Assembly: GCA_965249525.1 (NCBI GenBank)
Contig: OZ252237.1
Span: 1,241,470 to 1,305,469, forward strand
Direction of reading: 5' to 3'
Length of the DNA: 64,000 nucleotides
Origin: a bacterium
GTDB lineage: Bacteria; SAR324; JACQKK01
The position numbers and the translations under genes are program-made. Shown here piece after piece: positions 37,138-58,814 of the stretch. How positions within the stretch are numbered: the stretch's first letter is position 1; each line of letters starts with the position of its first letter. The notes beneath the pieces are model-generated. The model was not told the DNA's origin and made no database searches. It saw only the letters and a program-made list of their open reading frames with translations.

Positions 37138-37830
37138 ATGAAAACCTACATTTTACCCACATACCCTTATTTAGTTGATATGGTCAGCAAAACCAAGCAA
37201 CCGGGGCTTTACAATGCTTTATTGCTGGTAGTCATGCTGCTGCCTTCCCTTACGCTGTTCTCCTGCGGAGGCGGCGGCAGCGGCAGCGGCGGCAGCGGCG
37301 GCAGCGGCAGCGAAACAGCAGCAGCAGCACCAGCCCCTCTCTCAGACAACATTTATCTGTGGACAACAACCTCACAGTACAATGGCAATTTGGGCGGAAT
37401 AGAGGGTGCAAATAACAAATGCGCTGGCGATGACGCCAAGATAGCTGCTTTGCCAACGGGTGAATTTACTTATACCCATCAGGCAGTACTGGCTGGAAGT
37501 GAATCTCATTCCAGCAGCATTATACCCAGTACGGACACCCGTGAAGTCCAGCGTCCCGACAGCACCAAGATTGCTGACAACTACCAAGCTTTTGCAGGCA
37601 GCACTAATGCTGTGGATGCCAGCGTGACCAGCAATAACATTGAATACTGGACAGGCTTAGATTATTCTGTTGGGGATGCTACCTTTGCCCTAAGCAACCA
37701 CTGCAACAATTGGGGTGTGTCATCAGGTACTGGTGCTGTTGGACGTTCTATAGATATTGATGGAGATAGATTAGGCAATTACATACCTGCCTGTAATACC
37801 CCGCAATATCTTTTGTGCCTTAGTCATTAA
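37138..37830 (+). CDS. DUF1554 (endostatin/C-type-lectin-like) lipoprotein P1
   Basis: Lipobox LFSC + Gly; YNGNLGGIEGANNKC...WTGL...CNNW...C...LLC pattern; GGAG RBS before ATG 37138. Confidence 0.75.
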   Translation: MKTYILPTYPYLVDMVSKTKQPGLYNALLLVVMLLPSLTLFSCGGGGSGSGGSGGSGSETAAAAPAPLSDNIYLWTTTSQYNGNLGGIEGANNKCAGDDAKIAALPTGEFTYTHQAVLAGSESHSSSIIPSTDTREVQRPDSTKIADNYQAFAGSTNAVDASVTSNNIEYWTGLDYSVGDATFALSNHCNNWGVSSGTGAVGRSIDIDGDRLGNYIPACNTPQYLLCLSH

Positions 37831-37897
37831 TTTGCACCCCCAGCAAAAAAAGGGTAACATATTAGGTAGTTCTTTCTCCCATTCTAGGAGTACCTGC

Positions 37898-38587
37898 ATG
37901 CAAACCCACCTCTGGTCTCAGTCTATCTCAGTAAAATCAAGCAGGGGGCATCAAGCACTCCTGCTGTTGGCAGCCCTGCTGCTGCCCTCCCTCATACTGT
38001 TCTCCTGTGGAGGCAGTGGAGGAGGCGGCGGCGGAGACAAAACAGCAGCAGCCCCTCCCCCAGACCCCATTTATCTGTGGACAACAACAACCTCAGATCA
38101 CACGGGCAATTTGGGCGGAATAGTTGAAGCAAATAAGGTATGCGCTAACGATACCGCCAAGATAGCTGCTTTGCCAGATTTGCCAACGGGTGTTACTTAT
38201 ACCCATCAGGCAGTACTGGCTGATGCTGGATCTCATCCCAGCAGCATTATACCCAGTTCGGACACCAATCAAGTCCAGCGTCCTGACGGCACCAAAATTG
38301 CTGAAAACTACCAAGCTTTTGCAGGCAGCACTGCTAATGTGGATGCTGGCGTGACAAGCAATAGCATTGAATACTGGACTGGCTTACAGCCTGACTCTGA
38401 CTCTGGCACATTTACTACTCCTCCTGGTTCTCACTGCAGCAATTGGAGCAACGAAGAAACATCAGGGAGCGGTTTTATTGGACTTTCTCAAGAGGCCGGC
38501 TCGGGTAGATTAGGCCGCCGTGGAGTTTCTTTCTGCAATAGCACGCACCATCTTTTGTGCATCAGTCACACTCCTCCTACTGAGTGA
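37898..38587 (+). CDS. DUF1554-like lipoprotein P2
   Basis: AGGAG RBS, MQTHLWSQ leader, LFSC, same Cys/Trp pattern. Confidence 0.75.
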   Translation: MQTHLWSQSISVKSSRGHQALLLLAALLLPSLILFSCGGSGGGGGGDKTAAAPPPDPIYLWTTTTSDHTGNLGGIVEANKVCANDTAKIAALPDLPTGVTYTHQAVLADAGSHPSSIIPSSDTNQVQRPDGTKIAENYQAFAGSTANVDAGVTSNSIEYWTGLQPDSDSGTFTTPPGSHCSNWSNEETSGSGFIGLSQEAGSGRLGRRGVSFCNSTHHLLCISHTPPTE

Positions 38588-40439
38588 TGTCTGCTGAACT
38601 GCTGCTTTCGCTTTCCAGGTTGCTTACCAATTTGGCATAGAGTCCAGCGTGCTGAAGCAAGGTTTCATGGCTGCCGCTTTCCGCCACGCGCCCTTGGTCT
38701 ATCACCAAGATGCTGTCCGCACTGCGAATGGTACTCAAACGATGGGCAATAGCAATCACTGTGCGGTCTTGAAAGAGTTTGTGGACTGCCGTTTGTATGG
38801 CTTGCTCGGTGATGGAATCCACTGCACTGGTGGCTTCGTCCAACACAATCAGTTCTGATTCCCAAGCAACAGCGCGCGCCAGGGAGAGCAGCTGTCGCTG
38901 CCCCGCAGAAAAATTGCTCCCGCCGCGCTGCACCTGATGCTGGTAGCCCCCTTTGAGTCGCTCAATAAAGCCTGCAGCCTGGGTGTATTCGGCAGCTTGA
39001 CGCATCTGCTGTGAAGGAATCTCCTCCATAGCAATGTTAAAAGCCAACGAGCCTTGAAATAAGAACACATCCTGATGCACCACTGCAATCAGACGAGCAA
39101 GTGTCTCAGCGTGGTATTCCTTCAGTTCGCGTCCGTTAAGCAGAATATGACCCTGATACCCTTCATAAGCGCGCATCAGCAGCTTCACTATAGAAGACTT
39201 GCCTGCACCCGTAGCTCCCACAATCGCCAGCGTTTGCCCGCGCTGGAGAGAAAAATTGACGCCCTTGAGTATTTCCTCTCCCTCTGGTGTATAAGCAAAG
39301 CGCACCTGGCGAAATTCCAGCGAGTGGAACTCTTCCTTGGAGGGCTTGGGGTCAAGATGGTGCTGTTCGCTGACAGCAGGGGGGGTTTCACAAATTTGGT
39401 TGATGTGACTAAGGGCAGCCATGGAACGCTGCAGCAAGGCCAGCTGCTGGGAAAATTCTTTTAAGGGAACAAACAGCCGTTGGATGTACTCCATAAAAGC
39501 CACCAAGACCCCCAAGCTGAGTATACCGAATTGTACTTGGCTGGCACCAAAAGCCAGCACCACCACCATGGCAAGCACGGTAACGCTTTCCACGATAGAG
39601 TACAGGGCAGCATCATGGAAGTTGGAGGTGTTTTGGGCACGCAGGAAGCGTTGGTTTTTGCGTGTATAGCTTTGCAGGGCGGAGGCTTCGGCGCGAAACA
39701 GCTGCAGCACCTTGACCCCAGCCAGACATTCTTGCAGCCAGCCGGTGGCCTCCGAGAGGGCATGGCGCGCTTCATAAAAAGCACTGCGAATGCGCACCCG
39801 AAAGAAACGAATCGCCGCCAGCAGCAGAGGAACAATCAACAGCAGTGCCAGGGTGAGTCGCCAGTCCAGCAAGAACATGGCAATCAGAAATGCTACCATT
39901 TTTAACACATCTACCACCAGCTGCATGGCGTTGCTGCTGAGGCTTTCGCCCAGTGCTTCTACATCGCTGGTGATGCGGGTCAGCACGGTGCCGATGGGGT
40001 GGGAGTCAAAGTAGGCCCGCGGCAGCCTGAGGCTGTGGGCAAACACTCGGGTACGCAGTGCTGCCAGCAGGTTTTGTCCCACCCGCTGCATAGAGGTGAT
40101 GTACACTGCATCGGTAACATAGTCCACCAGCACCGCAGCGATAGCCAGAGAAGCCACCTTCACCAGCCCTGACCAATACGGCGCCAGGCTGCCTTCGTTG
40201 GCAGCAGGGAGGAGGTAGTCATCAATAGCCACCTTGATGAGCCAGGGCGGTATGCTTGCCATAACAGCAGAAATCGGCAGCAGCAGCACTACGCCAAAGA
40301 ACAGCCAGCGCCAGCGCACCAATTCTGGCCACAACATACGCAGCAAGGTGGGCGGCGGGCTGGCAAACAATCGTTTCCAGCAGCGTTCAGCAAAGGGTGG
40401 CAGCCGCTCGGGATATGGCTGCGAGGCAAAAGTGGTCAT
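38577..40439 (-). CDS. ABC exporter ATP-binding/permease subunit (MdlB-like)
   Basis: TM domain, GATGAGKS, FSAGQRQLL, LDEATS, IAHRLSTI. Confidence 0.9.
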   Translation of the reverse strand: MTTFASQPYPERLPPFAERCWKRLFASPPPTLLRMLWPELVRWRWLFFGVVLLLPISAVMASIPPWLIKVAIDDYLLPAANEGSLAPYWSGLVKVASLAIAAVLVDYVTDAVYITSMQRVGQNLLAALRTRVFAHSLRLPRAYFDSHPIGTVLTRITSDVEALGESLSSNAMQLVVDVLKMVAFLIAMFLLDWRLTLALLLIVPLLLAAIRFFRVRIRSAFYEARHALSEATGWLQECLAGVKVLQLFRAEASALQSYTRKNQRFLRAQNTSNFHDAALYSIVESVTVLAMVVVLAFGASQVQFGILSLGVLVAFMEYIQRLFVPLKEFSQQLALLQRSMAALSHINQICETPPAVSEQHHLDPKPSKEEFHSLEFRQVRFAYTPEGEEILKGVNFSLQRGQTLAIVGATGAGKSSIVKLLMRAYEGYQGHILLNGRELKEYHAETLARLIAVVHQDVFLFQGSLAFNIAMEEIPSQQMRQAAEYTQAAGFIERLKGGYQHQVQRGGSNFSAGQRQLLSLARAVAWESELIVLDEATSAVDSITEQAIQTAVHKLFQDRTVIAIAHRLSTIRSADSILVIDQGRVAESGSHETLLQHAGLYAKLVSNLESESSSSADITQ

Positions 40440-40455
40440 TAGGCAGAAATAGTCA

Positions 40456-42372
40456 TTAGGCAGGTGTATTCCTTACAGCAGCCTCGGCTGAACTTTCTTG
40501 CGCAGAGAAGTGATCCATAGAACGCTCTTGCTGCAGCAGCCAGGCTTCACGATAGCAGCCAGGCTGCTGTATCAATTGATGGTGACTTCCGCTGGCAATC
40601 AGGCGACCGTCTTCCAGCACCAGTACACGTGCAGCGCGTTCCAATGCCGAGATGCGGTGAGAAATAATCAAGGTAGCTTGGGCATGCTGAAATTGGTAGA
40701 TCTGGTCTATCAGCCAGCGTTCGGTGCCATGATCCACCGCAGACAGCACCTCATCCAATACCAACACCCCGCAGCGACGCATCATGCAGCGCGCCAAAGC
40801 AATGCGCTGCTTTTGACCACCAGAGAGCGTGATACCCTTTTCGCCTACCAGGGTGGACAAGCCGTTGGGAAAGCGTTTCAGGTCTGGTGAAAGACCTGCT
40901 GCGTGCGCTGCCTGCCGAATGCGGGAACGCACCTCTTTAGAAAATCCTCCACTGGATGAATCCATGCCTGCCAGCTCTCCGTTATTCCTGCCAAATTTTT
41001 GCGAAGACAAGCTGGACGCCAGTACCTCTTTGACGCTTCTGCCCTGGGCATTGTCCAGTCCTAAGGCGATGTTGGCTTCAATGGTGTCAGAGAACAACAG
41101 GGGTTCTTGGGTTACCAGCAGTATTTGGCGACGCAGGGTCTCAAGGCTGAGTTCACGCACATCCACGCCATCCAAAAAGATGGTGCCTGTGGGGGGAGAA
41201 AGCCAGCCACACAACAAATTAGCCAGAGTGCTTTTGCCTTGACCTACCGAACCGAATATGCCCACCACCTCACCAGGACGCACCACCAAAGAGATATCAC
41301 GCAGAATAGATTGCTGGGGACTGTCAGGATAAGACCAGCTCAGTGAGCGCACCTCCAAGCCCTGCTTTAACTCGGCAGGCAGAAACGGTTGCTGTTCGGG
41401 AAGAATTGGTGGAGGCTGGGGATGGGCATCAAACACTTGTCTTAAGCTGTACAAGGATGTCATCCCACGCTGCAATATAAACAACAAGAAGGTGATGCCC
41501 ATCAACGGTGGTAACAACATAGAAAGGTACAAAGCATAGGCGGTGAAATCCCCAATGCTCATCTCGCCCGATACCAGCAGACTGGCACCCAGCAGCAGCA
41601 ACACCACCTTCAATACATTCACCAAATGGCTGAGAATAGGGGTAAACAAACGGAATCTTGCTATGCGCACCGATGCCTCGCGCAAGGGAACATTCAGTTT
41701 TTCAAAGGCACCTTCCGCCCAGCCAAATCCACGATAAGAACGCAACACATCTAAACCGTTGTAGGCTTCTACAGTGAAGTCGGAAAGATGCTGCAAATTT
41801 TCCATGTGCTGAAACTGATAACGTTTCATGATGCGCAAGCCAATTTGCAGCAGAAAAAAAACAAAGACTATCGGCAGCAAAAAATAAATGGTCACCCGAG
41901 GAGCAATTTGGAACATCAACCAAGGTGCAACGGAGATAGTACCCAAGCCGTTGAAGAGCATCATCAAGCCGAATCCCATCAGCAGACGTACCCCGTTAAC
42001 ATCGTTGTTGATGCGGGAGATGAGCCCGCCGCTAGGATTTTTGAGAAAAAATTGGTGATGCATATGAGAAAGATGTGCCAACATGCGATTTTTTAAGTCA
42101 TACTCAATTTGTCTGCTGGGCACGAAAAAAGCCACACGGGATCCTGTACGAAAGACCAGGGTAATCAGTCCCAGCGCAGCCATCCAGATGAGGCTTTCTA
42201 AGAAACGGGGATGTTGCAGGTTGCCACCTTGTTCCAGTACATCTATGGCACGCTGCATCCATTGCGGTATAGACAACGCAGCCCATAGAGTCAAGCCCAG
42301 CATCAACACCCCCAGCAGATACATTCCCAAATGCTCGCGCAGCAATGCCAGCAAAAATTTTCTAGAACTCAT
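40456..42372 (-). CDS. ABC exporter ATP-binding/permease subunit (MdlA-like)
   Basis: GSVGQGKS, LSGGQKQRIALAR, LDEVLSAVD. Confidence 0.9.
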   Translation of the reverse strand: MSSRKFLLALLREHLGMYLLGVLMLGLTLWAALSIPQWMQRAIDVLEQGGNLQHPRFLESLIWMAALGLITLVFRTGSRVAFFVPSRQIEYDLKNRMLAHLSHMHHQFFLKNPSGGLISRINNDVNGVRLLMGFGLMMLFNGLGTISVAPWLMFQIAPRVTIYFLLPIVFVFFLLQIGLRIMKRYQFQHMENLQHLSDFTVEAYNGLDVLRSYRGFGWAEGAFEKLNVPLREASVRIARFRLFTPILSHLVNVLKVVLLLLGASLLVSGEMSIGDFTAYALYLSMLLPPLMGITFLLFILQRGMTSLYSLRQVFDAHPQPPPILPEQQPFLPAELKQGLEVRSLSWSYPDSPQQSILRDISLVVRPGEVVGIFGSVGQGKSTLANLLCGWLSPPTGTIFLDGVDVRELSLETLRRQILLVTQEPLLFSDTIEANIALGLDNAQGRSVKEVLASSLSSQKFGRNNGELAGMDSSSGGFSKEVRSRIRQAAHAAGLSPDLKRFPNGLSTLVGEKGITLSGGQKQRIALARCMMRRCGVLVLDEVLSAVDHGTERWLIDQIYQFQHAQATLIISHRISALERAARVLVLEDGRLIASGSHHQLIQQPGCYREAWLLQQERSMDHFSAQESSAEAAVRNTPA

Positions 42373-42529
42373 TGGTTGATACCTGTTTAAGGTGGTAGTT
42401 GCATAGAAATTATGTTAGAGATACTGCCATTGCCCCTCCCAGGCAAATAAGCCACTGGCTTGACAAGAAGTTCTGATTCATCTTGCCACCTAGACAGAAA
42501 ACACACAAGGGAGGACATATAACGCATCT

Positions 42530-43621
42530 ATGGAAACCGACTTTCTATCTCTGGATTTTCACAGAAGTGTTTGGCCCCAGCAGCTGATAAAGGGCATGCG
42601 AGACTCTTTGAAGGAGGGCTGTCTTCCTGGTTGGTGGTTGTATCATGGGACGCAGCAGGTATTGCGTTGGCAGGAGTATCAGGCGGGGCATGCACCAGCA
42701 GCAACGCAAGAGAAGAAGCTGTTTGAGTTGTACCGCCAAGCCAGTATTTGGATAGCACGAGAAGCCCTGGATAGACCCGTACAGGTGGTCAGTTTGGGTG
42801 CAGGCGATGGCAGCAAGGATGTGATGCTGGTGGATGCCCTGCTGGCAGGTGGTGGACGCAAGCCCCAGGACATTATTTACACGCCCATGGATATCAGCCC
42901 GTCTTTATGCGTACAGGCGCTGCACAACATGCATGCGCTGCAGCCCAATGTATCGCTGCATGCTTTGGTGGTGCGTTTGGATCAAGCCCCCAGGCTGCGC
43001 CCATGGTTGATGCAGCACGAAACCAGCATCGGTATTCTGGGGCGTGCTATTCGCATTATCACTTGCTTTGGGCTGTTTCCCAATATGTGGCCGCAGCCAT
43101 TTGCAGCCTGGCTGAGACGCCTGGTGCGCTATGGCGATTTTCTGCTGGTATCCACCAATCTTTCTCCTCCTATGGAAGAAGCTGTCTCCATGGTGATGCC
43201 CCAATATGACAATCCCTTGGCACGCGCTTGGTACCAAAGCGGGCTGGAGAGTTTAGGGGTGGGTCGCCAAAAGATACGGCTGGATATTCAGCCCCAAGCC
43301 CTTAATGAAGATGACAAAGCCTGGCAGGTGCAGGTGATGCTAACCAGCATGAATCTTAAACACCGTCTGAAAATTGAGCCATTTGCCTCTTTATCCATGG
43401 AATTGGAATTGGAGTCTCCTTTGTTGGTGTTCTTTTCCAATCGTTTTGAGGCGAAGACTTTTGAAGCACTGCTGGCACAAGAGGGTTTTGCGGTGTCAAA
43501 ACGTTGGTTGGAAGAAGACGCTTGCTGGGAAGGGGTCTTCGCTTGCTTCCCGCTGCCCCCAGGCATCAAGAAGGTGAAGTCCTCTGTCCCGGAGCTGCGA
43601 ATCGCTTCCCCATCCAGCTAG
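42530..43621 (+). CDS. SAM-dependent methyltransferase, EgtD (histidine N-methyltransferase)-like
   Basis: SLGAGDGSKD, YTPMDIS, FGLFPNM, GDFLLVSTNL align with the EgtD motif order. Confidence 0.6.
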   Translation: METDFLSLDFHRSVWPQQLIKGMRDSLKEGCLPGWWLYHGTQQVLRWQEYQAGHAPAATQEKKLFELYRQASIWIAREALDRPVQVVSLGAGDGSKDVMLVDALLAGGGRKPQDIIYTPMDISPSLCVQALHNMHALQPNVSLHALVVRLDQAPRLRPWLMQHETSIGILGRAIRIITCFGLFPNMWPQPFAAWLRRLVRYGDFLLVSTNLSPPMEEAVSMVMPQYDNPLARAWYQSGLESLGVGRQKIRLDIQPQALNEDDKAWQVQVMLTSMNLKHRLKIEPFASLSMELELESPLLVFFSNRFEAKTFEALLAQEGFAVSKRWLEEDACWEGVFACFPLPPGIKKVKSSVPELRIASPSS

Positions 43622-44603
43622 CCCGACCGCGTGCAAAATCTGCCCAATCCAAGGGACGCCCGCCTTCCAGCTGCACCCGCAGCAACCGTACCCCTCCCCT
43701 GCGTGTCCGCACCCGACCATCAGCATGCAATACCCCCGCTTCTCCTGAGGGCGCTTCCGCCTCTTCCAAAGACAAAAATATCACCCGCCGACCTTCCAAC
43801 AAGCCACTGCAGCCAGGCCAATACTTATAGGCCCGATACTTGCGCAGCACAGTCGCCGCATCCTCCAAGAAAAAATCCACCCCGCCATCCTGCTTGCGCA
43901 CCCGCTTGCACCAGGTTGCCTCCGCTTCTTGCTGCGGCACCCCCTCCAGCCGACCCTCCAGCATCCCTCCCAAGCACTGCCGCAGCAATTCAGCCGAACG
44001 CTCCGCCAAGCGACCTGCCAAACTGCTGGCATCATCTTCTGCGCACACCGCTTCAACCACACGCCCCACCAAACAACCCGCATCCAAGTGCTCTTCCATA
44101 CGCTGCAGGGTTACCCCCGTTTGCTTATCCCCTGCCAGCAGCACCGCCTGCACCGGACTTGCCCCCCGCCAGCGCGGCAGCAAAGAAAAATGCAAATTGA
44201 ACATCCCCAAATGCGCCATCTGCAGCATCCACGGGGGCAGCAGGCGACCATAAGCACACACCACCCCCAACTCCATTCCCCAGGCCTCCAACACCTGCCC
44301 TATTTCCTCAGGTTTCAGGCTGGCAGGTTTCAGGCTGGCAGGTTTCAGGCTGGCAGGTTTCAGGCTAGCAGGTCCCAGCCAAGGCAGCCCCCAGCGTTCT
44401 GCCTGCTGATGCACCGCACAACTGCGCAGCTGACGGGACATCCCCTCCCCGCCAGCACGCCTGCTGCCACGACCTGCAGCTTGAGGAGGCTGCGTCACTA
44501 CCCCCACCAGCCTCACCCGCTTATCTGCTGCCAATACGCCCAAAGACGGCAAAGCCCACTGTGGACTGCCAAAAAATACCGTGCGCACCCCTTGTTGTCC
44601 CAT
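43566..44603 (-). CDS. fmt: Methionyl-tRNA formyltransferase, with PASLK x4 insertion
   Basis: VFFGSP, VVTQP, VCAYGRLLP, NLHFSLLPRWRGASP, LDAG. Confidence 0.93.
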   Translation of the reverse strand: MGQQGVRTVFFGSPQWALPSLGVLAADKRVRLVGVVTQPPQAAGRGSRRAGGEGMSRQLRSCAVHQQAERWGLPWLGPASLKPASLKPASLKPASLKPEEIGQVLEAWGMELGVVCAYGRLLPPWMLQMAHLGMFNLHFSLLPRWRGASPVQAVLLAGDKQTGVTLQRMEEHLDAGCLVGRVVEAVCAEDDASSLAGRLAERSAELLRQCLGGMLEGRLEGVPQQEAEATWCKRVRKQDGGVDFFLEDAATVLRKYRAYKYWPGCSGLLEGRRVIFLSLEEAEAPSGEAGVLHADGRVRTRRGGVRLLRVQLEGGRPLDWADFARGRASWMGKRFAAPGQRTSPS

Positions 44604-44611
44604 TCATCTCC

Positions 44612-45955
44612 CTACCGACCAGAGTCATCGCCTGCTTTTTTGCCCGCAGCCTTTTGTATGGAAGCCCCTTTGCCCGTACGCGCCCGCAAGGATTCCGCAT
44701 GGGCAAACAACTGCTCGGCTTCGGCAAAACGTTGAATCTTCTCACTGTCTCGCTGCAAACGCTCTGGCGAATAACGCAGCACAGAGGAACGCTTGATGAA
44801 ATCACCCACCCCCAAGGGAGAAGAAAAGCGTGCCCGCCCCCCCGTGGGCAAAATATGGTTGGGACCGGCAAAATAATCACCCACCGCTTCTGGTGTGTCT
44901 GCCCCCAAAAAAATCGCCCCAGCATGACGCACCTGACTTAAAGTTTGAAACGGGTCAGCTGTGAGCAATTCCAAATGCTCAGGAGCCAGTTCATTCACCA
45001 CTTGCAAACCTGCCTCCAGACTGTCCACCAACACAATGCCAGAACCACTGGCAAAAGAAGCCGCAATAATATCCGCACGCGGCAAACCAGCTATCAACTC
45101 CTCCAAACGCCGCTCCACATCTTGGGCTTGCTGAGGATGCGTGGTCACCAGCAGCGCACGGGCATCGGCATCATGCTCCGCCTGAGAGAGCAAATCCCTC
45201 GCCAGATACTCTATGGGAATATCTTTCTGCGTACAAAGAATCACAATCTCGCTGGGACCTGCAATGGCATCAATGCCCACATCACCACACACCTGTCGCT
45301 TGGCTTCTGCCACCCAGCGACTGCCAGGGCCCACAATCTTGTCCACCCGCGGAACGCTTTCTGTCCCCCAAGCCAGTGCAGCAATGGCTTGTGCGCCGCC
45401 CACCGCATACAAATTCTCCACCCCCAACAAGGCCGCCGCTGCCAAAATATCCCGATGTGGAAGTCCATCCGCCCCTGGCGGCGACACCACCACTATCTCT
45501 CCCACCCCCGCCAGCTGCGCTGGCACCACGCCCATCAACAAGCTGGAAGCATAGGTTGCCTGCCCCCCAGGCACATACACCCCCACCCTGTCCAAAGGCG
45601 ATACCTTCCACCCCATCACACTGCCATCGGGAAAAAATTCCAAGCGACTATCCTCGCACTGACGCATATGAAAGCGCTCAATATTGTCCAGGGCCTCAAT
45701 CCATACATCCTTTAAGGCAGGATCAAGCCCCGACAGTGCTGCTTCCATCAGCTCCTCGCCCACCTTCAAAGAGACTGGCGCAACCCCGTCAAAACGCTGG
45801 GTATAATCCAAAAGCGCCCTGTCACCCTCAACGCGAACCCGCTCCAACACTTGGCGCACCTGTGCCTCCAGGTTGTCCTCTTGCGACAGCGTCCGACTTT
45901 CCAGCCGTTCCAGATATGCTTCCAAAGAGGGAAATATAGATACCAACGGAGGCAT
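44612..45955 (-). CDS. hisD: Histidinol dehydrogenase
   Basis: GGAQAIAALAWGT, KIVGPG, IDAIAGPSE, APEHLEL, GDYFAGPNHILPT. Confidence 0.96.
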   Translation of the reverse strand: MPPLVSIFPSLEAYLERLESRTLSQEDNLEAQVRQVLERVRVEGDRALLDYTQRFDGVAPVSLKVGEELMEAALSGLDPALKDVWIEALDNIERFHMRQCEDSRLEFFPDGSVMGWKVSPLDRVGVYVPGGQATYASSLLMGVVPAQLAGVGEIVVVSPPGADGLPHRDILAAAALLGVENLYAVGGAQAIAALAWGTESVPRVDKIVGPGSRWVAEAKRQVCGDVGIDAIAGPSEIVILCTQKDIPIEYLARDLLSQAEHDADARALLVTTHPQQAQDVERRLEELIAGLPRADIIAASFASGSGIVLVDSLEAGLQVVNELAPEHLELLTADPFQTLSQVRHAGAIFLGADTPEAVGDYFAGPNHILPTGGRARFSSPLGVGDFIKRSSVLRYSPERLQRDSEKIQRFAEAEQLFAHAESLRARTGKGASIQKAAGKKAGDDSGR

Positions 45956-45985
45956 TAGCGCAATTCCCTTAAAAGAAAGCCGATT

Positions 45986-46834: not shown

Positions 46835-46852
46835 GGGGAAGGTTGGTGAGAG

Positions 46853-48349: not shown

Positions 48350-48562
48350 TAGCTTACAAGACAGCCTCTTACAAGATAGCCTGGGTTTGCACCAAAAACC
48401 AGTTTCTAATAAATACAGCCTGGCTAATTCAGCTTGGCTAATTTACCTGGCTTGGTGCTAAATGCTATTATAGCATAATTTTTTTTGGCAGTCAGGACAC
48501 TGCAAAAAAGGCTGCTGCCTGGTTACAGACAGCAGCCTTGATGCTAGTTGGGCGGGTTGTTA
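48350..48562 (-). repeat. Cassette leader L8, directly upstream of the tolB start
   Basis: Terminator, CTGACT-N17-TATAAT, 15-bp repeats, then ATGTTGATGCAA. Confidence 0.9.
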
Positions 48563-49861: not shown

Positions 49862-50105
49862 GATCTCCTCCTTAGAAGTGTGAATATAGAATGCCTCACG
49901 AGCTTACAAGATAGCCTCTTACAAGATAGCTTCTTGCAAGATAGCCTGGATTTGCACCAAAAGCCAGTTTCTAATAAATTCACTTGCTTTGGTGTAAGTG
50001 TTATTATAGCATAATATTTTTTCTTTGGCAGTCAGGACGCTGCAAGAAAAAAGGCTGCTGCCTGGTTACAGACAGCAGCCTTTATGCTAGTTGGGCGGGT
50101 TGTTA
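49862..50105 (-). repeat. Cassette leader L9 (three 15-bp units)
   Basis: Reverse complement of the consensus element. Confidence 0.9.
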
Positions 50106-51476
50106 CTCCTCAAAGCTCACGGTTTGGGGCGTGGAGGTTGAGGTATCAGCATCGCTGTCAGCATCATCACCATCTGGAAGCTCGCCAACCCCCAGCCGTC
50201 CATTGGTGTTTTCACCCCAGCATTTGAAAACGCCGCTGTGAATGGCACAAGTGTAATTAATCCCTGCTGAGATGGCAGTGACATCGCTGTCCAGCAGAAC
50301 GGCATCAGTAGGGTTGCCATCAGAGTCGGTACCGGCAGGGGTTTGCACCACAGTCACAGGCTCATTGCTGACAAATCCAGGAGTGCTGCTTTTGGCGACG
50401 CCCAGCTGGCCGAAGGAGTTACTTCCCCAGCACTTGGCGGCACCACCATGAATGGCACAAGTGTGAAACTCCCCTGCTGAGATGGCAGTGACACCGCTAG
50501 TCAGGTCTGTGACCTGCACAGGCGTGGTTTTGTCCTTATCAATTCCCACGACACCAACAGTGGTAGTCTCGCTGTTACCCAGCTTGCCATTTTCGTTGTT
50601 CCCCCAGCACTTGGCGGCGCCATCGTGAACGGCACAAGTGTGCTCCACCCCTGCTGAGATGGCATCGACCTTGCTAGTCAGGTCTGTGACCTGCACGGGT
50701 GTAAAGCCGCTGCTGTCGTCGTCGCCGTCGCCCAGCTGACCCTCTGTGTCATCTCCCCAGCACTTGGCGGCGCCCTTGTGAACGGCACAAGTGTGATTAG
50801 CCCCTGCTGAGATGGCAGTGACATCGCTGTTTAGCTTGTCGGCAGTGGTTCCCACAAGCACGGGTACAGTTTGATCGGCGGTAGCAGCGGTGCCCAGCCG
50901 TCCATCGGTAAATTGCCCCCAGCAATAGGCGGCCTTATTTACAATCGCACAAGTGTGCCTATCCGCTGCTGAGATGGCAGTGACAAGGTTGTTCAGCGGA
51001 GAGCTGAGAGCCCCAGGAATCTTCCTGTCAGGGCTGGCGGTGAAACCCAGCCGTCCATTGCTGCCGAACCCCCAGCACCAGGCGGCGTCATCTACAATCG
51101 CACAAGTGTGCCTCTCCCCTGCTGAGATGGCAGTGACCCCGCTGTCCAGATTTGTGACCTTCTTGGGAGTACTGCTGTCAACGGCACCACCGATGCCCAG
51201 CCGTCCACTGCCGTTGTTCCCCCAGCACTGGGCGGCAAGTACCTCAGCTTCACCCTCGGCAGCAGTATTGTGAATGGCACAAGTGTGCTTCTCCCCTGCT
51301 GAGATAGTAGTACCACTTATTATGGGAGTGTCGTCGCCGCCGTTGCCGGGGTCAGCGACGACGCCGCCGTTGCCACCACCGCCGCCACCGCCGCAGCCGG
51401 CAAGGCTTAGCAGGGCAACCGAAAACAGCAGAACAAACATGTTCGGTGTAGTATATAATGATTTTAGATTTTTCAT
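50103..51476 (-). CDS. RCC1-repeat (7-blade) lipoprotein g8
   Basis: LAGC + Gly, seven repeats. Confidence 0.9.
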   Translation of the reverse strand: MKNLKSLYTTPNMFVLLFSVALLSLAGCGGGGGGGNGGVVADPGNGGDDTPIISGTTISAGEKHTCAIHNTAAEGEAEVLAAQCWGNNGSGRLGIGGAVDSSTPKKVTNLDSGVTAISAGERHTCAIVDDAAWCWGFGSNGRLGFTASPDRKIPGALSSPLNNLVTAISAADRHTCAIVNKAAYCWGQFTDGRLGTAATADQTVPVLVGTTADKLNSDVTAISAGANHTCAVHKGAAKCWGDDTEGQLGDGDDDSSGFTPVQVTDLTSKVDAISAGVEHTCAVHDGAAKCWGNNENGKLGNSETTTVGVVGIDKDKTTPVQVTDLTSGVTAISAGEFHTCAIHGGAAKCWGSNSFGQLGVAKSSTPGFVSNEPVTVVQTPAGTDSDGNPTDAVLLDSDVTAISAGINYTCAIHSGVFKCWGENTNGRLGVGELPDGDDADSDADTSTSTPQTVSFEE

Positions 51477-51650
51477 GATCTTCTCCTTAGAAGTTTGAAT
51501 ATAAAATGCCTCACGGGTTTACAAAACAGCCTCTTACAAGATAGCCTCTTACAAGATAGCCTGGATTTGCACCAAAAGCCAGTTTCTAATAAATTCACTT
51601 GCTTTGGTGTAAGTGTTATTATAGCATACTTTTGTGCAAGTGCTATGATA
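51477..51650 (-). repeat. Cassette leader L10 (no terminator; follows tolA)
   Basis: TATGCTATAAT, three 15-bp units, AAGGAG. Confidence 0.85.
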
Positions 51651-51674
51651 ATCTGTCAGATAAATCTTGTGGTT

Positions 51675-52325
51675 TTAAGGGGTGCATGTCCATACCAGCA
51701 CCGCCGACTTGGCGGAAAATTGCCTTGGCAGCGGAGGAAAGGAGGTGTTGTGGATACGCGCCAGACAAACCAGTTGATCAAAGCGTTGATTGCCACTGGA
51801 GGAAGTGAGCGCAATTTCTTGCTTGCTGCCATCACCAGCCAGCCGCAATCGTACCACTGCGCGTAATTGGGGTGAAAATTTGGCAGGGAAGTCATAATTG
51901 TCCCGCACCCGCTGACCAATGTCCTCCAAGTACAGCCGCCAAGCCAGTACTGCCGCCTTATCTCTTTCCCGCTTACTATTCTCCAGCTTAAACGCAGCCA
52001 CTGATGCATTTACTCTCCCCAGCGAAGCCTGGGGCAAAGTAGCAGGCCGCAACACCTTGGGCAACGGAGGAGCATCCTCAGACAACGGAGGAGCATCCTC
52101 AGACAACGGCACTGTGGCTGAGGGCTGCGAGGACAAGGCAGCAACTACCCCCGCTTGCACTGGCAGCAAATGCACAGGAACTGCTACCAACTGCACCTCA
52201 TAAGCCTGTTTTATCTCAGGCGGCGCAGTCGCAGGCCAAACCGCCAAACCCACTAATAACAAGCCATGCAGCAATATAGAGGCTATGAAGGCTTTTGCCA
52301 TGCCCGCTTGTTTTTTTACTTCCAT
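51675..52325 (-). CDS. tolA: TolA/TonB-family energy transducer
   Basis: SILLHGLLL TM motif, Pro-rich linker, C-terminal SSGNQRFD; follows tolQR. Confidence 0.7.
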   Translation of the reverse strand: MEVKKQAGMAKAFIASILLHGLLLVGLAVWPATAPPEIKQAYEVQLVAVPVHLLPVQAGVVAALSSQPSATVPLSEDAPPLSEDAPPLPKVLRPATLPQASLGRVNASVAAFKLENSKRERDKAAVLAWRLYLEDIGQRVRDNYDFPAKFSPQLRAVVRLRLAGDGSKQEIALTSSSGNQRFDQLVCLARIHNTSFPPLPRQFSAKSAVLVWTCTP

Positions 52326-52404
52326 ATGCTTGAACTAAAAACCCCTTGCCCTAAAAACCCCTTGCCCTAAAACTCCTTGCCCTAAGAACCCATACCCGCA
52401 CCTT

Positions 52405-52842
52405 CTATGGCTGTTCAATCACCAACCCCACCTGTTTCACTTGCAAACGGCGCAATTCAGCCATCACCTGCAATACCCTGCCGTAAGACAAGCGCGCATC
52501 CGCCCGCAGCAATGCAGGAGAATCAGGATTAGCCAGCCGCCAAAGACGCACCTGGCTGCGAAATGACTGCCTGGTAGCAGCATGGTTGAATGTCCCCAGG
52601 GTTTCCCTGTTCAAAGCCACCTCCCCCACCTGATTGATACTCACCACCAAGCTCTGCCCCTTCCCAGACCCAGCAGGAATATCCGCCTGCGGCAGCTGCA
52701 CCTGTAATGAATACGCCACCACAGGTGCCGTAATCATAAAAATCACCAACAGCACCAACAGCACATCCACCAACGGCACAATGTTAATCTCTGCCACTTC
52801 CCCTGTAGATAACGACCTGCTGCGCCAACGACTCATCATCAA
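52405..52842 (-). CDS. tolR: TolR/ExbD
   Basis: EINIVPLVDVLLVLLVIFMITAP, LRADARLSYGRV. Confidence 0.88.
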   Translation of the reverse strand: MMMSRWRSRSLSTGEVAEINIVPLVDVLLVLLVIFMITAPVVAYSLQVQLPQADIPAGSGKGQSLVVSINQVGEVALNRETLGTFNHAATRQSFRSQVRLWRLANPDSPALLRADARLSYGRVLQVMAELRRLQVKQVGLVIEQP

Positions 52843-53516
52843 TTTCCCCGTTCTATTCTATTCAAGGCACGCAAAACAAAGTTTTGCATGGTCTCCTGAT
52901 GCCGATGCAGCATCCCCTGATACACATTGTACGCCACCAATGAGGGAACCGCAGTAAACAGTCCCGCCGCCGTCGCCGCCAGCGCCTCGGATATCCCAGG
53001 CGCCACCACCGATAAACTCACCTCTCCCGAACGACCAATAGAGGTAAATGCACGCATTACTCCCAATACTGTCCCCAACAACCCTACATAAGGCGATGCA
53101 CTGGCCGTTAACGCCAAAAAACCCATTCCCCTGCGCAAGCGCTGAACCTCTGTGGCAATAGCGCACTCCATCTCTCGCATTAAGCACTCCGCCCTGCGTT
53201 CTGACTTCGCATGCGCCATATGATGCAGCTTACTTAATTCACGCATTCCCGCAACATATACCGTCGCCAACGGCGCCGTAGATTTGCTGGCATCTTGCAA
53301 AAATTTGCTGTGATGCAGTTTGGAGGTCTCCCTGGGCAAATTTGCCAAAGCCTGTAAACGACGTTCAAAGATGCGATTCCCACGTGACGCATCCCAAAAT
53401 CGCCAATTGCTGGCAAATATCCACGCCCAACTGCAAATACTGACCCCCCCCAATACCAACAACACCAAGAAGCCCGTAGAATTCTGCAGCAAACTGCCCA
53501 CAATCACATCCCACAT
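52839..53516 (-). CDS. tolQ: TolQ/ExbB
   Basis: SASPYVGLLGTVLGVM, VVAPGISEALAATAAGLFTAVP. Confidence 0.88.
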   Translation of the reverse strand: MWDVIVGSLLQNSTGFLVLLVLGGVSICSWAWIFASNWRFWDASRGNRIFERRLQALANLPRETSKLHHSKFLQDASKSTAPLATVYVAGMRELSKLHHMAHAKSERRAECLMREMECAIATEVQRLRRGMGFLALTASASPYVGLLGTVLGVMRAFTSIGRSGEVSLSVVAPGISEALAATAAGLFTAVPSLVAYNVYQGMLHRHQETMQNFVLRALNRIERGN

Positions 53517-53601
53517 AATCTGCTTCTCCTGATTCTGCCCCTCTCAAACTACTCCTTGCCCATCTCGCCCAAGCTTTAGATACGCATTGCTAAGGTTTGG
53601 C

Positions 53602-54198
53602 TTACTCTTCTTTAATCTCCACCCGTCGATTCTGACTCCAAGCCTCCTCATTGGAAGCACGAACCAACGGACGCTCCTCTCCAAAACTCACCGTACGTAT
53701 GCGGCTTCTTGAAATGCCACGCTCCAACAAAACACGCACCACCGCACTGGCACGCCGACTGCCCAATGCTAAATTGTACGCATTGGTTCCCCGTTCATCC
53801 GCATGCCCCACCACCAGCAATTGCACAGACTCATTATCCAACAAGTGTTCTGTCGTCAATGACAACACCTCCACCGCATCTGGGCGAATATCGGATTTAT
53901 CAAAGTCAAATCGTATATGCGGGTAATTCCCTTCTCGTATCGCTTGGGAAATTTGCTCTGGAGTACTGCTATCTGCAAGCTGTCTCCCTAGATCATCACC
54001 TACAGCAACCGCATCCTGCAGAGATGATGCATTGTCAATAGCCCTGCAACCTGCCATCCACAACCCCATTCCCACAGCCAACACCACCAAAACAAAAGAC
54101 GTCCTGCAACTCCATGCACCCCGCCAACCCCCTAAGCAGACATTCCACCGTTGATTTTTAAGCACTTTATTGAGCACCTTATTCAGCATTATATTCAA
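53602..54198 (-). CDS. pal: Pal/OmpA-family lipoprotein (downstream copy)
   Basis: MAGC lipobox; FDFDKS, GHADERGTNAYNLALGSRRA, SFGEERP, NRRV. Confidence 0.85.
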   Translation of the reverse strand: MNIMLNKVLNKVLKNQRWNVCLGGWRGAWSCRTSFVLVVLAVGMGLWMAGCRAIDNASSLQDAVAVGDDLGRQLADSSTPEQISQAIREGNYPHIRFDFDKSDIRPDAVEVLSLTTEHLLDNESVQLLVVGHADERGTNAYNLALGSRRASAVVRVLLERGISRSRIRTVSFGEERPLVRASNEEAWSQNRRVEIKEE

Positions 54199-54386
54199 TC
54201 GCAGCCTTATTTTTTTGCTTTAAGCATCCAGCTGCATGAAAACATACACCTTGCCAGCAGATGATGCACAAAACACGATGCACAAAACACGATGCACAAA
54301 ACACACTGCAATCATCATCTTATCCCCTATCACCACAATTGTTTATTGACAATTGTGTATTGACAATTGTGTATTGACAACGAGAA

Positions 54387-54986
54387 TTATCTCACACTAA
54401 ACACAACTCGACGATTGCTACTCCAAGCAGCAAGCGTACTGTCTAATTCCAGAGGTTGATCCTCTCCAAAGCTATCCGTGCGAATGCGATTGCTAGGCAG
54501 TCCTTGTGATACCATGGCATCTCGCACCGCACTGGCACGCCGATTGCCCAAGGCTAAATTGTAATCATTGGTTCCCCGTTCATCCGCATGCCCCACCACC
54601 AGCAATTGCACAGACTCATTATCCAACAAGTGTTCTGTCATCAATGACAACACCTCCACCGCATCTGGGCGAATATCGGATCTATCAAAGTCAAATCGTA
54701 TATGCGGGTAATTCCCTTCTCGTATCGCTTGGGAAATTTGCTCTGAAGTACCGCTGTCTGCAAGCTCATCACTTGTAGCAACCGCAGCCTGCAGAGATGA
54801 TGCATTGTCAGCAACCTGGCAACCTGCCACCCACAACCCCATCCCCGTAACCAACACCACCAAAACAAAAGGCGTCCTGCAACTCCATGCAGCCCGCCAA
54901 CCCCCTAAGCAAACATTCCACCGTTGATTTTTAAGCATTTTATTGATCATTTTATTCAGCTCCTCATTCAGCATTATATTCAGCAT
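54387..54986 (-). CDS. pal: Pal/OmpA-family lipoprotein, chimeric middle copy
   Basis: 5' two-thirds match 53602-54198, 3' end matches 55257-56108. Confidence 0.85.
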   Translation of the reverse strand: MLNIMLNEELNKMINKMLKNQRWNVCLGGWRAAWSCRTPFVLVVLVTGMGLWVAGCQVADNASSLQAAVATSDELADSGTSEQISQAIREGNYPHIRFDFDRSDIRPDAVEVLSLMTEHLLDNESVQLLVVGHADERGTNDYNLALGNRRASAVRDAMVSQGLPSNRIRTDSFGEDQPLELDSTLAAWSSNRRVVFSVR

Positions 54987-55256
54987 TATATTGCAGTACC
55001 TTATTCAGTACCTTATTCAGTGCCTTATTCAGCACCTTATTCAACATTGTATTCAGCATTATATTCAATCGCAACCTTATTTTTTTGCTTTAAGCATCCA
55101 GCTGCATGAAAACATACACCTTGCCAGCAGATAATGCACAAAACACGATGCACAAAACACACTGCAATCATCATCTTACCCCCTATCACCACAATTGTGT
55201 ATTGACAATTGTGTATTGACAATTGTGTATTGACAATTGTGTATTGACAACGAGAA

Positions 55257-56108
55257 TTATCTCACCCTAAACACAACCCGACGATTGCTACTCCAAGCAG
55301 CAAGCGTACCGCCTAATTCCACAGGACGCTCCTCTCCAAAGCTCACCGTGCGAATGCGATTGCTAGGCAGCCCTTTTGATATCATGGCATCTCGCACCAG
55401 GCGGGCGCGACGATGACCCAAGGCTAAATTGTAATCATTGCTTCCCCGTTCATCAGAATGTCCTTCCAAGGTTACTCGCAAATTGCTGTTCTTGAGCAAT
55501 TTTTTTACATTCTTGGTGATGTTACGAGAAGATTTAGCTCTAACCACTGCGCTGTCAACCTCAAAAAACACAGGAACATAACCCCGTGTGCCATAATCGC
55601 CAGGCCTGCTGGCTGGGCCTCTCACTGCTCTGACAGACCCAGGCGCCGCCGCTGCAGACAGTTCTACAATCACCAAGGATGCCTGCAGCAATGGATCTAT
55701 CCAGCCTTCAGGAAAATTTGGCGACTTAATCAACAGTGCTTTGCGCATGGTCTCTGCATTGAAAAATCGCTGAGCGGACAACCCCTGCGCTTGAACAACA
55801 ATGCTGTCATCTGCCCCATCTTCCCGCAGACGGTTCAGTGCATTTTCACTCACCTCCAAATAGGCATTTTGCAAATCCGGTGTTTGATTACTGAGATCAA
55901 GCGGCGGGGGCAAATCTTTATCCCCTTGAAGCCTTGATTCCTCAGTCGCATCCGCTACTGCCCCACCTGTTGGCGCACACCCATACATCAACAGCACCAA
56001 CAATAACAAACCCCAAAACCCTAAGCCCAGCGCTTGTCGTATGGCAGCAAGTATTCTGCTGTTGCTTGCATTCAAATGAAAAGTGGACTGCAATATTTCT
56101 AACTGCAT
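55257..56108 (-). CDS. Pal/OmpA-family lipoprotein with extra N-terminal region (upstream copy)
   Basis: MYGC lipobox; GHSDERGSNDYNLALGHRRA, NRRV. Confidence 0.8.
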   Translation of the reverse strand: MQLEILQSTFHLNASNSRILAAIRQALGLGFWGLLLLVLLMYGCAPTGGAVADATEESRLQGDKDLPPPLDLSNQTPDLQNAYLEVSENALNRLREDGADDSIVVQAQGLSAQRFFNAETMRKALLIKSPNFPEGWIDPLLQASLVIVELSAAAAPGSVRAVRGPASRPGDYGTRGYVPVFFEVDSAVVRAKSSRNITKNVKKLLKNSNLRVTLEGHSDERGSNDYNLALGHRRARLVRDAMISKGLPSNRIRTVSFGEERPVELGGTLAAWSSNRRVVFRVR

Positions 56109-56227
56109 GCTTTTTATTCCCTTATCGTCCTGTATTTTCTATGTGAATTTTAGCGTATTTGTCAAGCCATTCTTTGTTATCGTACACTTCAAGCCGTTGC
56201 CCGTTCCATCGTCCCCAGGTCCCACCC

Positions 56228-57091
56228 ATGCCCATACACACTCTCCCCTGGAATGTCTATCTGGATGATGCCCTCAGCGGCCCCCTCAACATGGCCCGAG
56301 ACCAATACCTGCTGCAGTGCGCCCTCAACCAACAGCAAGGGTTTATTCGCCTTTACAGCTGGGATCAGTCCCTGATTTCTTTGGGTCGCACCCAGCGCTG
56401 CCAAGACGACCTCAACCTGGCTGCCTGTGCAGCAAAGCGCATTCCCCTGGTCAGACGCATCACCGGCGGACGGGCTGTCCTCCATGGAGATGATCTTACT
56501 TATGCTGTCGCTGCCCCCAGAAAGGCTTTCAGCCATACCTCCCAACCCGCCAGCCTAATGGACATCTACCAAGCCATCAGCCAGGTATTTGTGCGTTTGT
56601 TTCAACATCTCCAGCTTTCCCCACACATCCAGCAGCATTCGCCCCAGCAGCGCGCCCGCTTAGCCAGCCCTATCTGCTTCGCCACACCCTCCCCCTTTGA
56701 AGTGCTGCACCAAGGCAAAAAACTCCTCGGCAGCGCACAAAGAATGCTCCCCCATGCCTTTTTACAGCACGGATCTCTCCCCCTAACCCCACAGCACCAC
56801 CAACTGCCTTCCCTTTTCCAGGCACCAGAAGCCACCCATATGCAGCACAAAATGACCGATCTCTCCTCCATTGGCGCCTGGAAACGCATCGGCAGCCTGC
56901 CCAAGCTTCAGCAGCTGCTGCTGCAATGCTTCCAAGAATGCTGGCAAACCCCATTGCTCCCTGCACAATGGCAAGAAAAAGACCATCTGGCTGTTGAAAA
57001 ACTGCTGCCCCAATACCCCTTGCTTCATCCCGCAAAACTGCTGGCTGCTAACAGTAAAAATTGCCAAACAGTCCGCCTCCATCCAAACTGA
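56228..57091 (+). CDS. Lipoate-protein ligase / octanoyltransferase (LplA/LipM family)
   Basis: GPLNMARD, RRITGGRAVLH, KKLLGSAQR, LQHGSL. Confidence 0.88.
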   Translation: MPIHTLPWNVYLDDALSGPLNMARDQYLLQCALNQQQGFIRLYSWDQSLISLGRTQRCQDDLNLAACAAKRIPLVRRITGGRAVLHGDDLTYAVAAPRKAFSHTSQPASLMDIYQAISQVFVRLFQHLQLSPHIQQHSPQQRARLASPICFATPSPFEVLHQGKKLLGSAQRMLPHAFLQHGSLPLTPQHHQLPSLFQAPEATHMQHKMTDLSSIGAWKRIGSLPKLQQLLLQCFQECWQTPLLPAQWQEKDHLAVEKLLPQYPLLHPAKLLAANSKNCQTVRLHPN

Positions 57092-57100
57092 TGCAAGTCT

Positions 57101-57230
57101 TTCCTCTTCTCTTTCCTCTTCTCTTTCCTCTTCTCTTTCCTCTTCTCTTTCCTCTTCTCTTTCCTCTTCTCTTTCCTCTTCTCTTTCCTCTTCTCTTTCC
57201 TCTTCTCTTTCCTCTTCTCTTTCCTCTTCT
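57101..57230. repeat. 12-bp all-pyrimidine VNTR, 10 full units + 1 partial
   Basis: ttcctcttctct units; only one unit in the homologous sequence near 36840 and 37040. Confidence 0.95.
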
Positions 57231-57309
57231 TTCTCATAAATTTGCACCCCCAGCAAAAAAAAGGGTAGTATGGTGGGTAGTTCTTTTCACTATTCATAGG
57301 AGTATCTGC

Positions 57310-58011
57310 ATGCAAACCCACCTCTGGTCTCAGTCTATCTCAGTAAAATCAAGCAGGGGGCATCAAGCACTCTTGCTGCTGGCAGCCCTGCTGCTGCCCT
57401 CCCTCATACTGTTCTCCTGTGGAGGCGGAGGCGGCGGCGGAGGCGGAGACAAAACACCAGCAGCAGACCCTCTCCCAGACAACATTTATCTGTGGACAAC
57501 AAGCGGAACGCACATGGGCAATTTGGGCGGAATAGAGGGTGCAAATAATGTATGCGAAGGCGATACCGACAAGACAGATACTTTGCCAGCTATTTTGCCA
57601 GCGGATGAGGATGAATTTACTTATAAACATCAGGCAGTGCTGGCTGTGGCTGATCCTGCATTTCACCCCGACAGTATTATACCTAATGCGGACACCCGTG
57701 AAGTCCAGCGTCCCGACGGCACCAAGATTGCTGACAACTACCAAGCTTTTGCAGGCAGCACTAATGCTGTGGCTGCTGGTGTAACACCCCCTCCTCCTGC
57801 TACTACACAAGAGTATTGGACTGGCTTAACGGCTACAGGGAACGATTTTATTATTGGAAATCACTGCGACAATTGGAGGGACGGAACAAATGGACAAATC
57901 AGTTCTGTTGGACTTTCTCAAAAGTTAGACGACCTTAGATTAGCCCGTGGAGTTGTTAGCTGTGATGTCCCGCTACATCTTTTGTGCGTTAGTCACTTAG
58001 TCACTAAGTAA
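57310..58011 (+). CDS. DUF1554-like lipoprotein P3
   Basis: AGGAG RBS, MQTHLWSQ leader, LFSC + Gly, conserved Cys/Trp pattern. Confidence 0.75.
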   Translation: MQTHLWSQSISVKSSRGHQALLLLAALLLPSLILFSCGGGGGGGGGDKTPAADPLPDNIYLWTTSGTHMGNLGGIEGANNVCEGDTDKTDTLPAILPADEDEFTYKHQAVLAVADPAFHPDSIIPNADTREVQRPDGTKIADNYQAFAGSTNAVAAGVTPPPPATTQEYWTGLTATGNDFIIGNHCDNWRDGTNGQISSVGLSQKLDDLRLARGVVSCDVPLHLLCVSHLVTK

Positions 58012-58139
58012 TGTCTATTGCCAAACAGCCCGCCTAGTGCTTGGGTAATATCTTTTGTGCATCAGCCATTAATTTGCACCCCCAGCAAAAAAGGGGTAGT
58101 ATGGTGGGTAGTTCTTTTCACTATTCTAGGAGTATCTGC

Positions 58140-58814
58140 ATGCAAACCCACCTCTGGTCTCAGTCTATCTCAGTAAAATCAAGCAGGGGGTATCAAGCAC
58201 TCTTGCTGCTGCCAGCCCTGCTGCTGCCCTCCCTCATACTGTTCTCCTGTGGAGGCGGAGGCGGCGGAGGCGGAGACAAAACACCAGCAGTAGTACTACC
58301 AACCCCTCCCCCAGACAACATTTATCTGTGGACAACAAGCGGAACGCACACGGGTGCTTTGGGCGGAATAGATGGTGCAAATAGTGTATGCGAAGGCGAT
58401 GCCGACAAGATAGCTGCTTTCCCAACGGATTTTACCCATCAGGCAGTGCTGGCTGTGGCTGATCCTGCATTTCACCCCGACAGTATTATACCTAATGCGG
58501 ACACCCGTGAAGTCCAGCGTCCCGACGGCACCCCGATTGCTGCCACCTACCAGGCTTTTGCAGGCAGCGCTGCTGAGGTGACTAGAGGTGTAACACCCAC
58601 TACTACTGAACAAATCTATTGGACTGGCTTATTGGATGGCAGAGGCATATATCTGATTGGTGCTCACTGCAACAATTGGCGCAGCGCAAGCGGAACAGTT
58701 CGCGGTGATATTGGACATTCTCAAGATGCCGTCTTCAGTAGATTAGGCACTGTCCTTAGTTCCTGTGATAACCTGCACCATCTTTTGTGCGTTAGTCACT
58801 TAGTCACTAAGTAA
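58140..58814 (+). CDS. DUF1554-like lipoprotein P4
   Basis: As P3; long identical middle segment, divergent C-terminal third. Confidence 0.75.
   Translation: MQTHLWSQSISVKSSRGYQALLLLPALLLPSLILFSCGGGGGGGGDKTPAVVLPTPPPDNIYLWTTSGTHTGALGGIDGANSVCEGDADKIAAFPTDFTHQAVLAVADPAFHPDSIIPNADTREVQRPDGTPIAATYQAFAGSAAEVTRGVTPTTTEQIYWTGLLDGRGIYLIGAHCNNWRSASGTVRGDIGHSQDAVFSRLGTVLSSCDNLHHLLCVSHLVTK

Follow-up and report, generated by a model that had tools for sequence, protein, structure and literature searches.

What has made the 3' parts of four related lipoprotein genes of a SAR324 bacterium differ from one another? The genes lie in a stretch of 64,000 nucleotides (the window) of a 1.72-Mb single-contig genome, at contig positions 1241470-1305469. 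An initial annotation had seen in their codons, which appeared to vary at positions 1 and 2 with position 3 fixed, the trace of a diversity-generating retroelement (DGR) acting by adenine-specific mutagenesis, and had named strong diversifying selection as the alternative. Our analysis points to the alternative: the genes probably form part of a family of surface lipoproteins that diversifying selection drives apart and that evolves in concert, with strain-level turnover of its copies and no dedicated mutator. All four genes are present at the starts given by the annotation, on the forward strand:

37138-37830, forward strand: P1, DUF1554/endostatin-like lipoprotein gene; lipobox TLFS-C, with the Cys codon at 37264; PF07588 score 28.0 bits (gathering cut-off 27.5 bits).
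37898-38587, forward strand: P2, DUF1554/endostatin-like lipoprotein gene; PF07588 score 36.6 bits.
57310-58011, forward strand: P3, DUF1554-like lipoprotein gene; PF07588 score 21.0 bits, under the cut-off.
58140-58814, forward strand: P4, DUF1554/endostatin-like lipoprotein gene; PF07588 score 36.0 bits; the copy used for the structure model.

The products of P1-P4 are 224-233 residues long and consist of a hydrophobic leader, a lipobox (L-F-S-Cys), a Gly-rich linker and a single DUF1554 domain. The sequence LLLPSL(I/T)LFS-C-GGG is found in all four leaders, with the Cys at residue 37 or 43 as judged by eye, and from leader and lipobox the four proteins are predicted to be lipoproteins. The earlier assignment to DUF1554 lipoproteins is borne out by these features and by PF07588 scores over the cut-off for P1, P2 and P4; despite its lower score, the P3 protein is 72% identical to P4. 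The whole genome contains nine DUF1554 copies, not four.

The fold was approached by profile and by model. A profile from 69 family members matches endostatin chains in the PDB (E = 2e-12; about 145 residues, at an identity of around 20%), and all four Cys align; 18 family members also match the Pfam Endostatin model. The AlphaFold (AF2) model of P4 has a predicted local distance difference test score of 86.4; its five best Foldseek matches are all endostatins, with template modelling (TM) scores of 0.67-0.72 on target length, the best being 1koe (TM 0.72). C-type lectins are weak matches to the model (E > 0.06), and the 50 best of the 92 Foldseek matches include no chain of Mtd or TvpA. The P1-P4 domain is thus predicted to have a C-type-lectin-like fold of the endostatin-like branch, held together by two nested disulfides, of which the inner would join Cys177 and Cys209 in P4. 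The four Cys were assigned to these disulfides by homology to endostatin, with a pairing that we take to be that of the known endostatin structure. The C-type-lectin fold claimed in the initial annotation holds in so far as the domain joins the lectin-like fold group via endostatin; the identification as a DGR target is not supported. The family resembles endostatin (the C-terminal NC1 domain of collagens XVIII and XV; PDB entries 1koe, 1bnl, 1dy0 and 1dy2) in profile match, in its four Cys and in fold, but its members are bacterial, are predicted to be lipid-anchored and lack a collagen context. The nearest NCBIfam model is that of the endostatin-like outer membrane protein LenA/LenB family (NF047482), with scores of 32.3 and 24.8 bits; these are far below the equivalog cut-off of 300 bits, so the proteins are distant relatives and not orthologs.

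The part in which the copies differ most begins right after a conserved YWTGL motif and extends through the loop closed by the inner disulfide:

37660-37806, forward strand: P1 variable loop region, from after YWTGL to just beyond the third domain Cys; inner-disulfide Cys codons at 37702 and 37792.
38387-38548, forward strand: P2 variable loop region.
57829-57975, forward strand: P3 variable loop region; inner-disulfide Cys codons at 57865 and 57961.
58632-58778, forward strand: P4 variable loop region; inner-disulfide Cys codons at 58668 and 58764.

The region is C-terminal, as had been claimed, and much else that was described from the letters is there. P3 and P4 share a long identical middle, a 96-nucleotide run (57628-57723 equals 58437-58532), and an identical 3' tail of 47 nucleotides (57976-58022 equals 58779-58825). 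The five codon columns quoted for the pattern are present exactly as written (alignment columns 145, 155, 163, 164 and 167), and the codon alignment also has the small indels, with GGA and AGA TTA invariant in it. What does not hold is the generalization that positions 1 and 2 vary while position 3 is fixed: among the 27 columns with variation at positions 1 and 2 alike, 14 vary at position 3 too. Over the 47 gap-free codon columns, variation is seen at positions 1, 2 and 3 in 34, 31 and 21 columns, respectively, and the 13 columns with position 3 fixed compare with 12.4 expected if the three positions vary independently. These 13 are mostly of the NNT or NNC type. The quoted pattern is a selected subset of a larger set, and the signal in the variable region that goes beyond chance is an excess of replacement over silent change. 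The hypervariable columns of the paralogs are also the highest-entropy columns among 63 outside relatives; G189, G192, R201 and the Cys residues are invariant across the same comparison.

A related strain, represented by one ENA metagenome contig (stretches L017 and L018), allows the copies to be compared between strains. At its P1/P2 locus there are four copies (S1-S4), and its P3/P4 locus has none; no further strains were found when conserved 23-nucleotide patterns were scanned in JGI metagenome contigs (twice) and GTDB genome contigs (once). Two of its copies have counterparts in the window:

L017 9962-10630: S1, ortholog of P1.
L017 12226-12951: S4, positional ortholog of P2.

P2 and S4 differ by a 4-nucleotide indel just before the gene end (38566-38587 versus L017 about 12925-12951), after which the C-terminal tails read ISHTPPTE and LSSPHSSY. 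Replacement (dN) and silent (dS) divergence was estimated from pairwise Nei-Gojobori counts, with significance from one-sided Fisher tests. The baseline between the strains is low, with dS of 0.04-0.07 and dN of 0.01-0.025 in six flanking genes, apart from one OmpA-family gene with a dN of 0.057.

In the variable regions of young copies, replacement outweighs silent change. Five such pairs have dN/dS between 2.4 and 11, and in four of them the replacement excess is significant: S3/S4 (dN/dS 11, p = 0.001), P2/S3 (4.9, p = 0.011), P3/P4 (2.9, from dN 0.88 and dS 0.30, p = 0.004) and S3/S2 (2.8, p = 0.007). This excess supports the diversifying selection that the initial annotation had kept as its alternative. 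The P1/P2 and P1/S2 variable regions have dN/dS of about 0.8-1.0. The ratio also exceeds 1 in the N-terminal part of P3/P4 (2.2) and P2/S4 (1.6), outside the variable region, which fits selection on a protein surface better than a mechanism targeted to one tract. In older paralogs from other parts of the genome, all three codon positions are saturated and dN/dS is 0.6-1.8. The saturation is as ordinary divergence predicts, and it follows that recency, not a mechanism, explains why position 3 is partly conserved in the young clade.

The same copies have exchanged segments. S3 is 100% identical to S2 over codons 30-75, yet its variable region is like those of S4 and P2; codons 0-15 of P1 equal those of S4, and the tail of S2 equals that of S1. 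Silent divergence is discordant between parts of one gene pair: dS is 0.23 in the variable region and 0.03 in the N-terminal part of S3/S2, 0.30 and 0.075 in P3/P4, and reversed in P2/S3, at 0.06 and 0.31. Nearest relatives that switch along the gene, together with discordant dS, indicate gene conversion. The leader and signal-peptide part is also held in common by several copies:

57235-57432, forward strand: P3 shared leader and signal-peptide block, 97% identical to the P4 block (58067-58262) and 91% identical to the P2 block (37805-38014).

This leader occurs only at P2, P3 and P4, which ruled out that it is shared with the RCC1 lipoprotein arrays. A promoter candidate picked by eye upstream of P2-P4 (TTGCAC-17-TAGTAT, 8/12) was not returned by a consensus scan, and no promoter is claimed. 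The variable regions of P3, P4 and S2 are unique, with at most 69% identity to any other copy; for P3, the maximum in 15-codon windows is 64% nucleotide identity. Outside its variable region, P4 has a change of its own at 58533-58547, from AAG ATT GCT GAC AAC to CCG ATT GCT GCC ACC, with four A-to-C changes in 15 nucleotides; this cluster may have arisen in a multi-nucleotide event or been imported from a copy not sampled here.

Whole gene units differ between the strains as well. P3 and P4 form a module that is absent from the related strain, in which the lipoate-ligase gene abuts the BNR gene's terminator region (L018 about 1274-1290). The parts of the module, and a relic on the reverse strand outside the window, are:

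57061-58888, forward strand: P3-P4 module, a strain-variable insertion/deletion, delimited by blastn of 55000-60200 against L018 and by the junction sequences.
57060-57077, 58017-58034 and 58820-58837, forward strand: 18-nucleotide direct repeat ATTGCCAAACAGYCCGCC, bounding each gene unit of the module.
57098-57230, forward strand: perfect 12-nucleotide tandem repeat TCTTTCCTCTTC in 11 units, between the array head element and the P3 leader.
Contig positions 1306500-1306650, reverse strand: relic of about 150 nucleotides, about 1 kb past the window end.

The right junction of the module repeats pieces of the 3' end of the lipoate-ligase gene (58866-58887 equals 56946-56967), and GCTGCTRACAGTAAAA is found at both junctions. 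The direct repeat ATTGCCAAACAGYCCGCC has three matches where 0.1 would be expected. Only one or two TCTTTCCTCTTC units are present in the head elements upstream of P1 and in the relic; the longer array upstream of P3 could affect P3 expression. The relic is a head element, CCTCCATCCAAACTGATGCAAGTC, followed at once by about 20 final codons and the 3' tail of a DUF1554 gene, ending in PQYLLCVSHLVTK and a stop, and looks like the scar of a deleted gene unit. Beside the module, an OmpA/Pal-type gene (55257-56108 versus L018 2225-3076) has an interstrain dN/dS of 0.89, and the other five flanking genes have values of 0.19-0.56. At the other locus, a 201-bp tandem duplication (two copies, 97% identical) lies at 36679-37080, immediately upstream of the P1 head element, and P2, the last gene of this first array, overlaps the end of a convergent ABC transporter gene.

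The family as a whole is sparsely distributed. It comprises 250 representative clusters at E ≤ 0.001 in 1.84 billion proteins, and among 88 genomes of the phylum only 3 have DUF1554 over the cut-off. A profile search of the same-genus genome found none, so the nine-copy expansion is lineage-specific.

The DGR reading was not borne out: it fails every defining test that was run, with no reverse transcriptase (RT), no template repeat and no adenine signature. The genome-wide search for an RT and a template that the initial annotation had proposed as a check found neither. No PF00078 (RVT_1) match over the cut-off exists in the whole genome; the single weak match (13.6 bits) contains a stop and lies antisense inside an open reading frame of 629 amino acids. 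The same-genus genome likewise has no RT over the cut-off, and in two other DUF1554-bearing genomes of the phylum RTs are absent or, as in one from the same order, on other contigs than DUF1554. The accessory variability determinant (Avd) is common but not universal in DGRs, and its model TIGR02436 has no match in the genome at E ≤ 1. Comparison of the four genes with the genome by blastn at word size 7 returned only paralogs and the one 3'-tail relic. A template scan tolerant of adenine changes (60-nucleotide windows, both strands, unlimited mismatches at genome A and at most six others) returned no template, only the tail common to P3, P4 and the relic. In the variable regions of P2, S3 and S4, 26 A sites are invariant against 37 variable sites (41% invariant), and 24% of the bases found at variable sites are A; after three independent rounds of retrohoming, only a few percent of the adenines would be untouched. 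Because there are indels inside the variable region, one template would not be able to serve all copies.

That the variable regions were produced by the adenine-specific mutagenic retrohoming of a DGR, whether active, recently lost or on a phage or plasmid that escaped sampling, is highly improbable, and for the present assembly this explanation is close to refuted. It would account for a C-terminal region of about 150 nucleotides in a C-type-lectin-related fold, for the 13 codon columns with position 3 fixed and for the identical 3' tail of P3 and P4 just past the region, and when changes were polarized with an outgroup one mild excess did appear, with 10 of the 19 private changes in the N-terminal part of P4 being from A (p = 0.016, uncorrected); this was the only excess, and it is lost after correction for 16 tests. 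It does not account for the invariant adenines, the variation at position 3, the indels, the reach of the replacement excess beyond the variable region or the conservation of the P1 variable region between strains described below. The target class also differs. Surveyed DGR targets are of the Mtd, FGE-sulfatase, DUF1566 and Ig types, DUF1554/endostatin not being among them, and the lectin-fold variable proteins include Mtd of the Bordetella phage, TvpA of Treponema (FGE type) and LdtA of Legionella (DUF1566 type) (Wu et al. 2018, PMC5758913). Our literature search found no link of DUF1554 or endostatin with DGRs. The present family is like Mtd, TvpA and LdtA in its predicted lectin-like fold with a putative C-terminal variable surface, and like LdtA in consisting of predicted surface lipoproteins, with some variable codons of the NNY type; unlike DGR targets, it has no RT, template or adenine specificity, it is of the endostatin-like subclass, and it has indels and position-3 changes in the region. 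Targeted diversification, current or recent, in the absence of a chromosomal RT and template, by a trans-acting DGR on an unsampled phage or plasmid or by an RT-independent process, we regard as equally remote; if it were true, endostatin-like DUF1554 domains would be a new class of hypermutation target.

Two other explanations were weighed. In programmed antigenic variation by segmental gene conversion, of which vlsE, pilE/pilS and tprK are examples, expressed copies would be rewritten at high frequency from donor copies or relics. Mosaic copies, the leaders and signal peptides common to P2, P3 and P4, the direct repeats around gene units, a relic adjoining the window and copies that lack an in-frame signal peptide and could act as donors would all suit such a system. 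No archive of promoterless partial cassettes was found, however, as blastn gives nine full-length copies and the one relic; the exchange is mainly in the scaffold, not in the variable loops, and the unique variable regions of P3, P4 and S2 mean that these were not assembled from visible donors. The variable regions of P1 and S1 differ at 8 of 147 nucleotides (three silent and five replacement changes, dN/dS 0.5), so this region has been stable since the strains split. We consider such a system very unlikely here. Neutral drift of weakly constrained loops together with homogenizing conversion, with dN/dS above 1 as an artefact of short regions, saturation and recombination, is unlikely too, if less so. 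It fits with the same columns being the least conserved family-wide, with the ratios of the older paralogs and of P1/P2 and P1/S2, and with several pseudogene-like copies, but not with four young pairs that have a significant replacement excess. Since dN/dS reaches 11 at a dS of only 0.03-0.06, saturation is not an issue, and since the P1/S1 ratio indicates constraint, the loops are not free to drift.

Several points weigh against diversifying selection with concerted evolution as the explanation. The dN/dS values come from pairwise counts over short regions (about 50 codons) of recombining genes. The fifth young pair, P2/S4, has a variable-region dN/dS of 2.4 that is not significant (p = 0.08), and the orthology of these two genes is positional only. 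In three of the nine genome copies (about 1188690, 1189503 and 780044) and two of the four copies in the related strain (L017 9886-10630 and 11442-12133), the signal peptide and lipobox are out of frame with the domain, so part of the family may be decaying. The frame shift sits within or just past the Gly-run linker, as in GAGAATGATGG versus GAGATGATGG; these copies could be pseudogenes, products of on/off switching or the result of indel errors in long reads. The copies at 780044 and 1188690 have the upstream region, 5' end and frameshift in common, and their domains have diverged, with a dS of 0.55 in the N-terminal part.

The explanation by diversifying selection and concerted evolution, which we still judge to be the probable one, runs as follows. 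The nine copies form a lineage-restricted family, predicted to be lipid-anchored, whose members are most unlike one another in the loops that precede the inner disulfide or lie within it. Segments of scaffold, leader and signal peptide have passed repeatedly from copy to copy, and whole gene units are gained, lost and moved between strains; gene conversion would keep the rest of each gene alike. The variable loops may form a ligand-contact surface, and what drives them apart may be selection for binding specificities that differ or are new, or for evading a recognizer of the protein.

Comparable families exist. The Len proteins of Leptospira interrogans (LenA-F) are six paralogous endostatin-like outer-membrane lipoproteins with DUF1554 that bind laminin, fibronectin and factor H; their diversity has been ascribed to recombination between paralogs and duplication, 5' non-coding regions are common to copies, and not every len locus is intact in every serovar (Stevenson et al. 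2007, PMC2063517). The P1-P4 family is like them in DUF1554, in its predicted endostatin-like fold and lipoprotein leaders, in its multiple copies sharing 5' non-coding regions, in recombination between paralogs and in having some apparently defective loci. It differs in that its host is a SAR324 bacterium and not a spirochaete, in that all copies are single-domain, and in a significant dN/dS above 1 localized to disulfide-closed loops. Concerted evolution of surface-protein paralogs with selected differences is also known from babA/babB of Helicobacter and opa of Neisseria. As there, what is conserved is homogenized by interlocus or tandem gene conversion, what varies stays distinct, and strains differ in copy number; the protein family is a different one.

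These results remove a false DGR lead, and the numbers show how selection on paralogs can mimic the look of codons that vary at positions 1 and 2 with position 3 fixed. They also place Len-type endostatin-like lipoproteins, hitherto studied in pathogenic Leptospira as adhesins that bind host matrix and complement, in an uncultivated SAR324 bacterium. The putative contact loops under positive selection hint at a variable partner, which could be a host matrix, prey, particle glycans, a phage or a predator.

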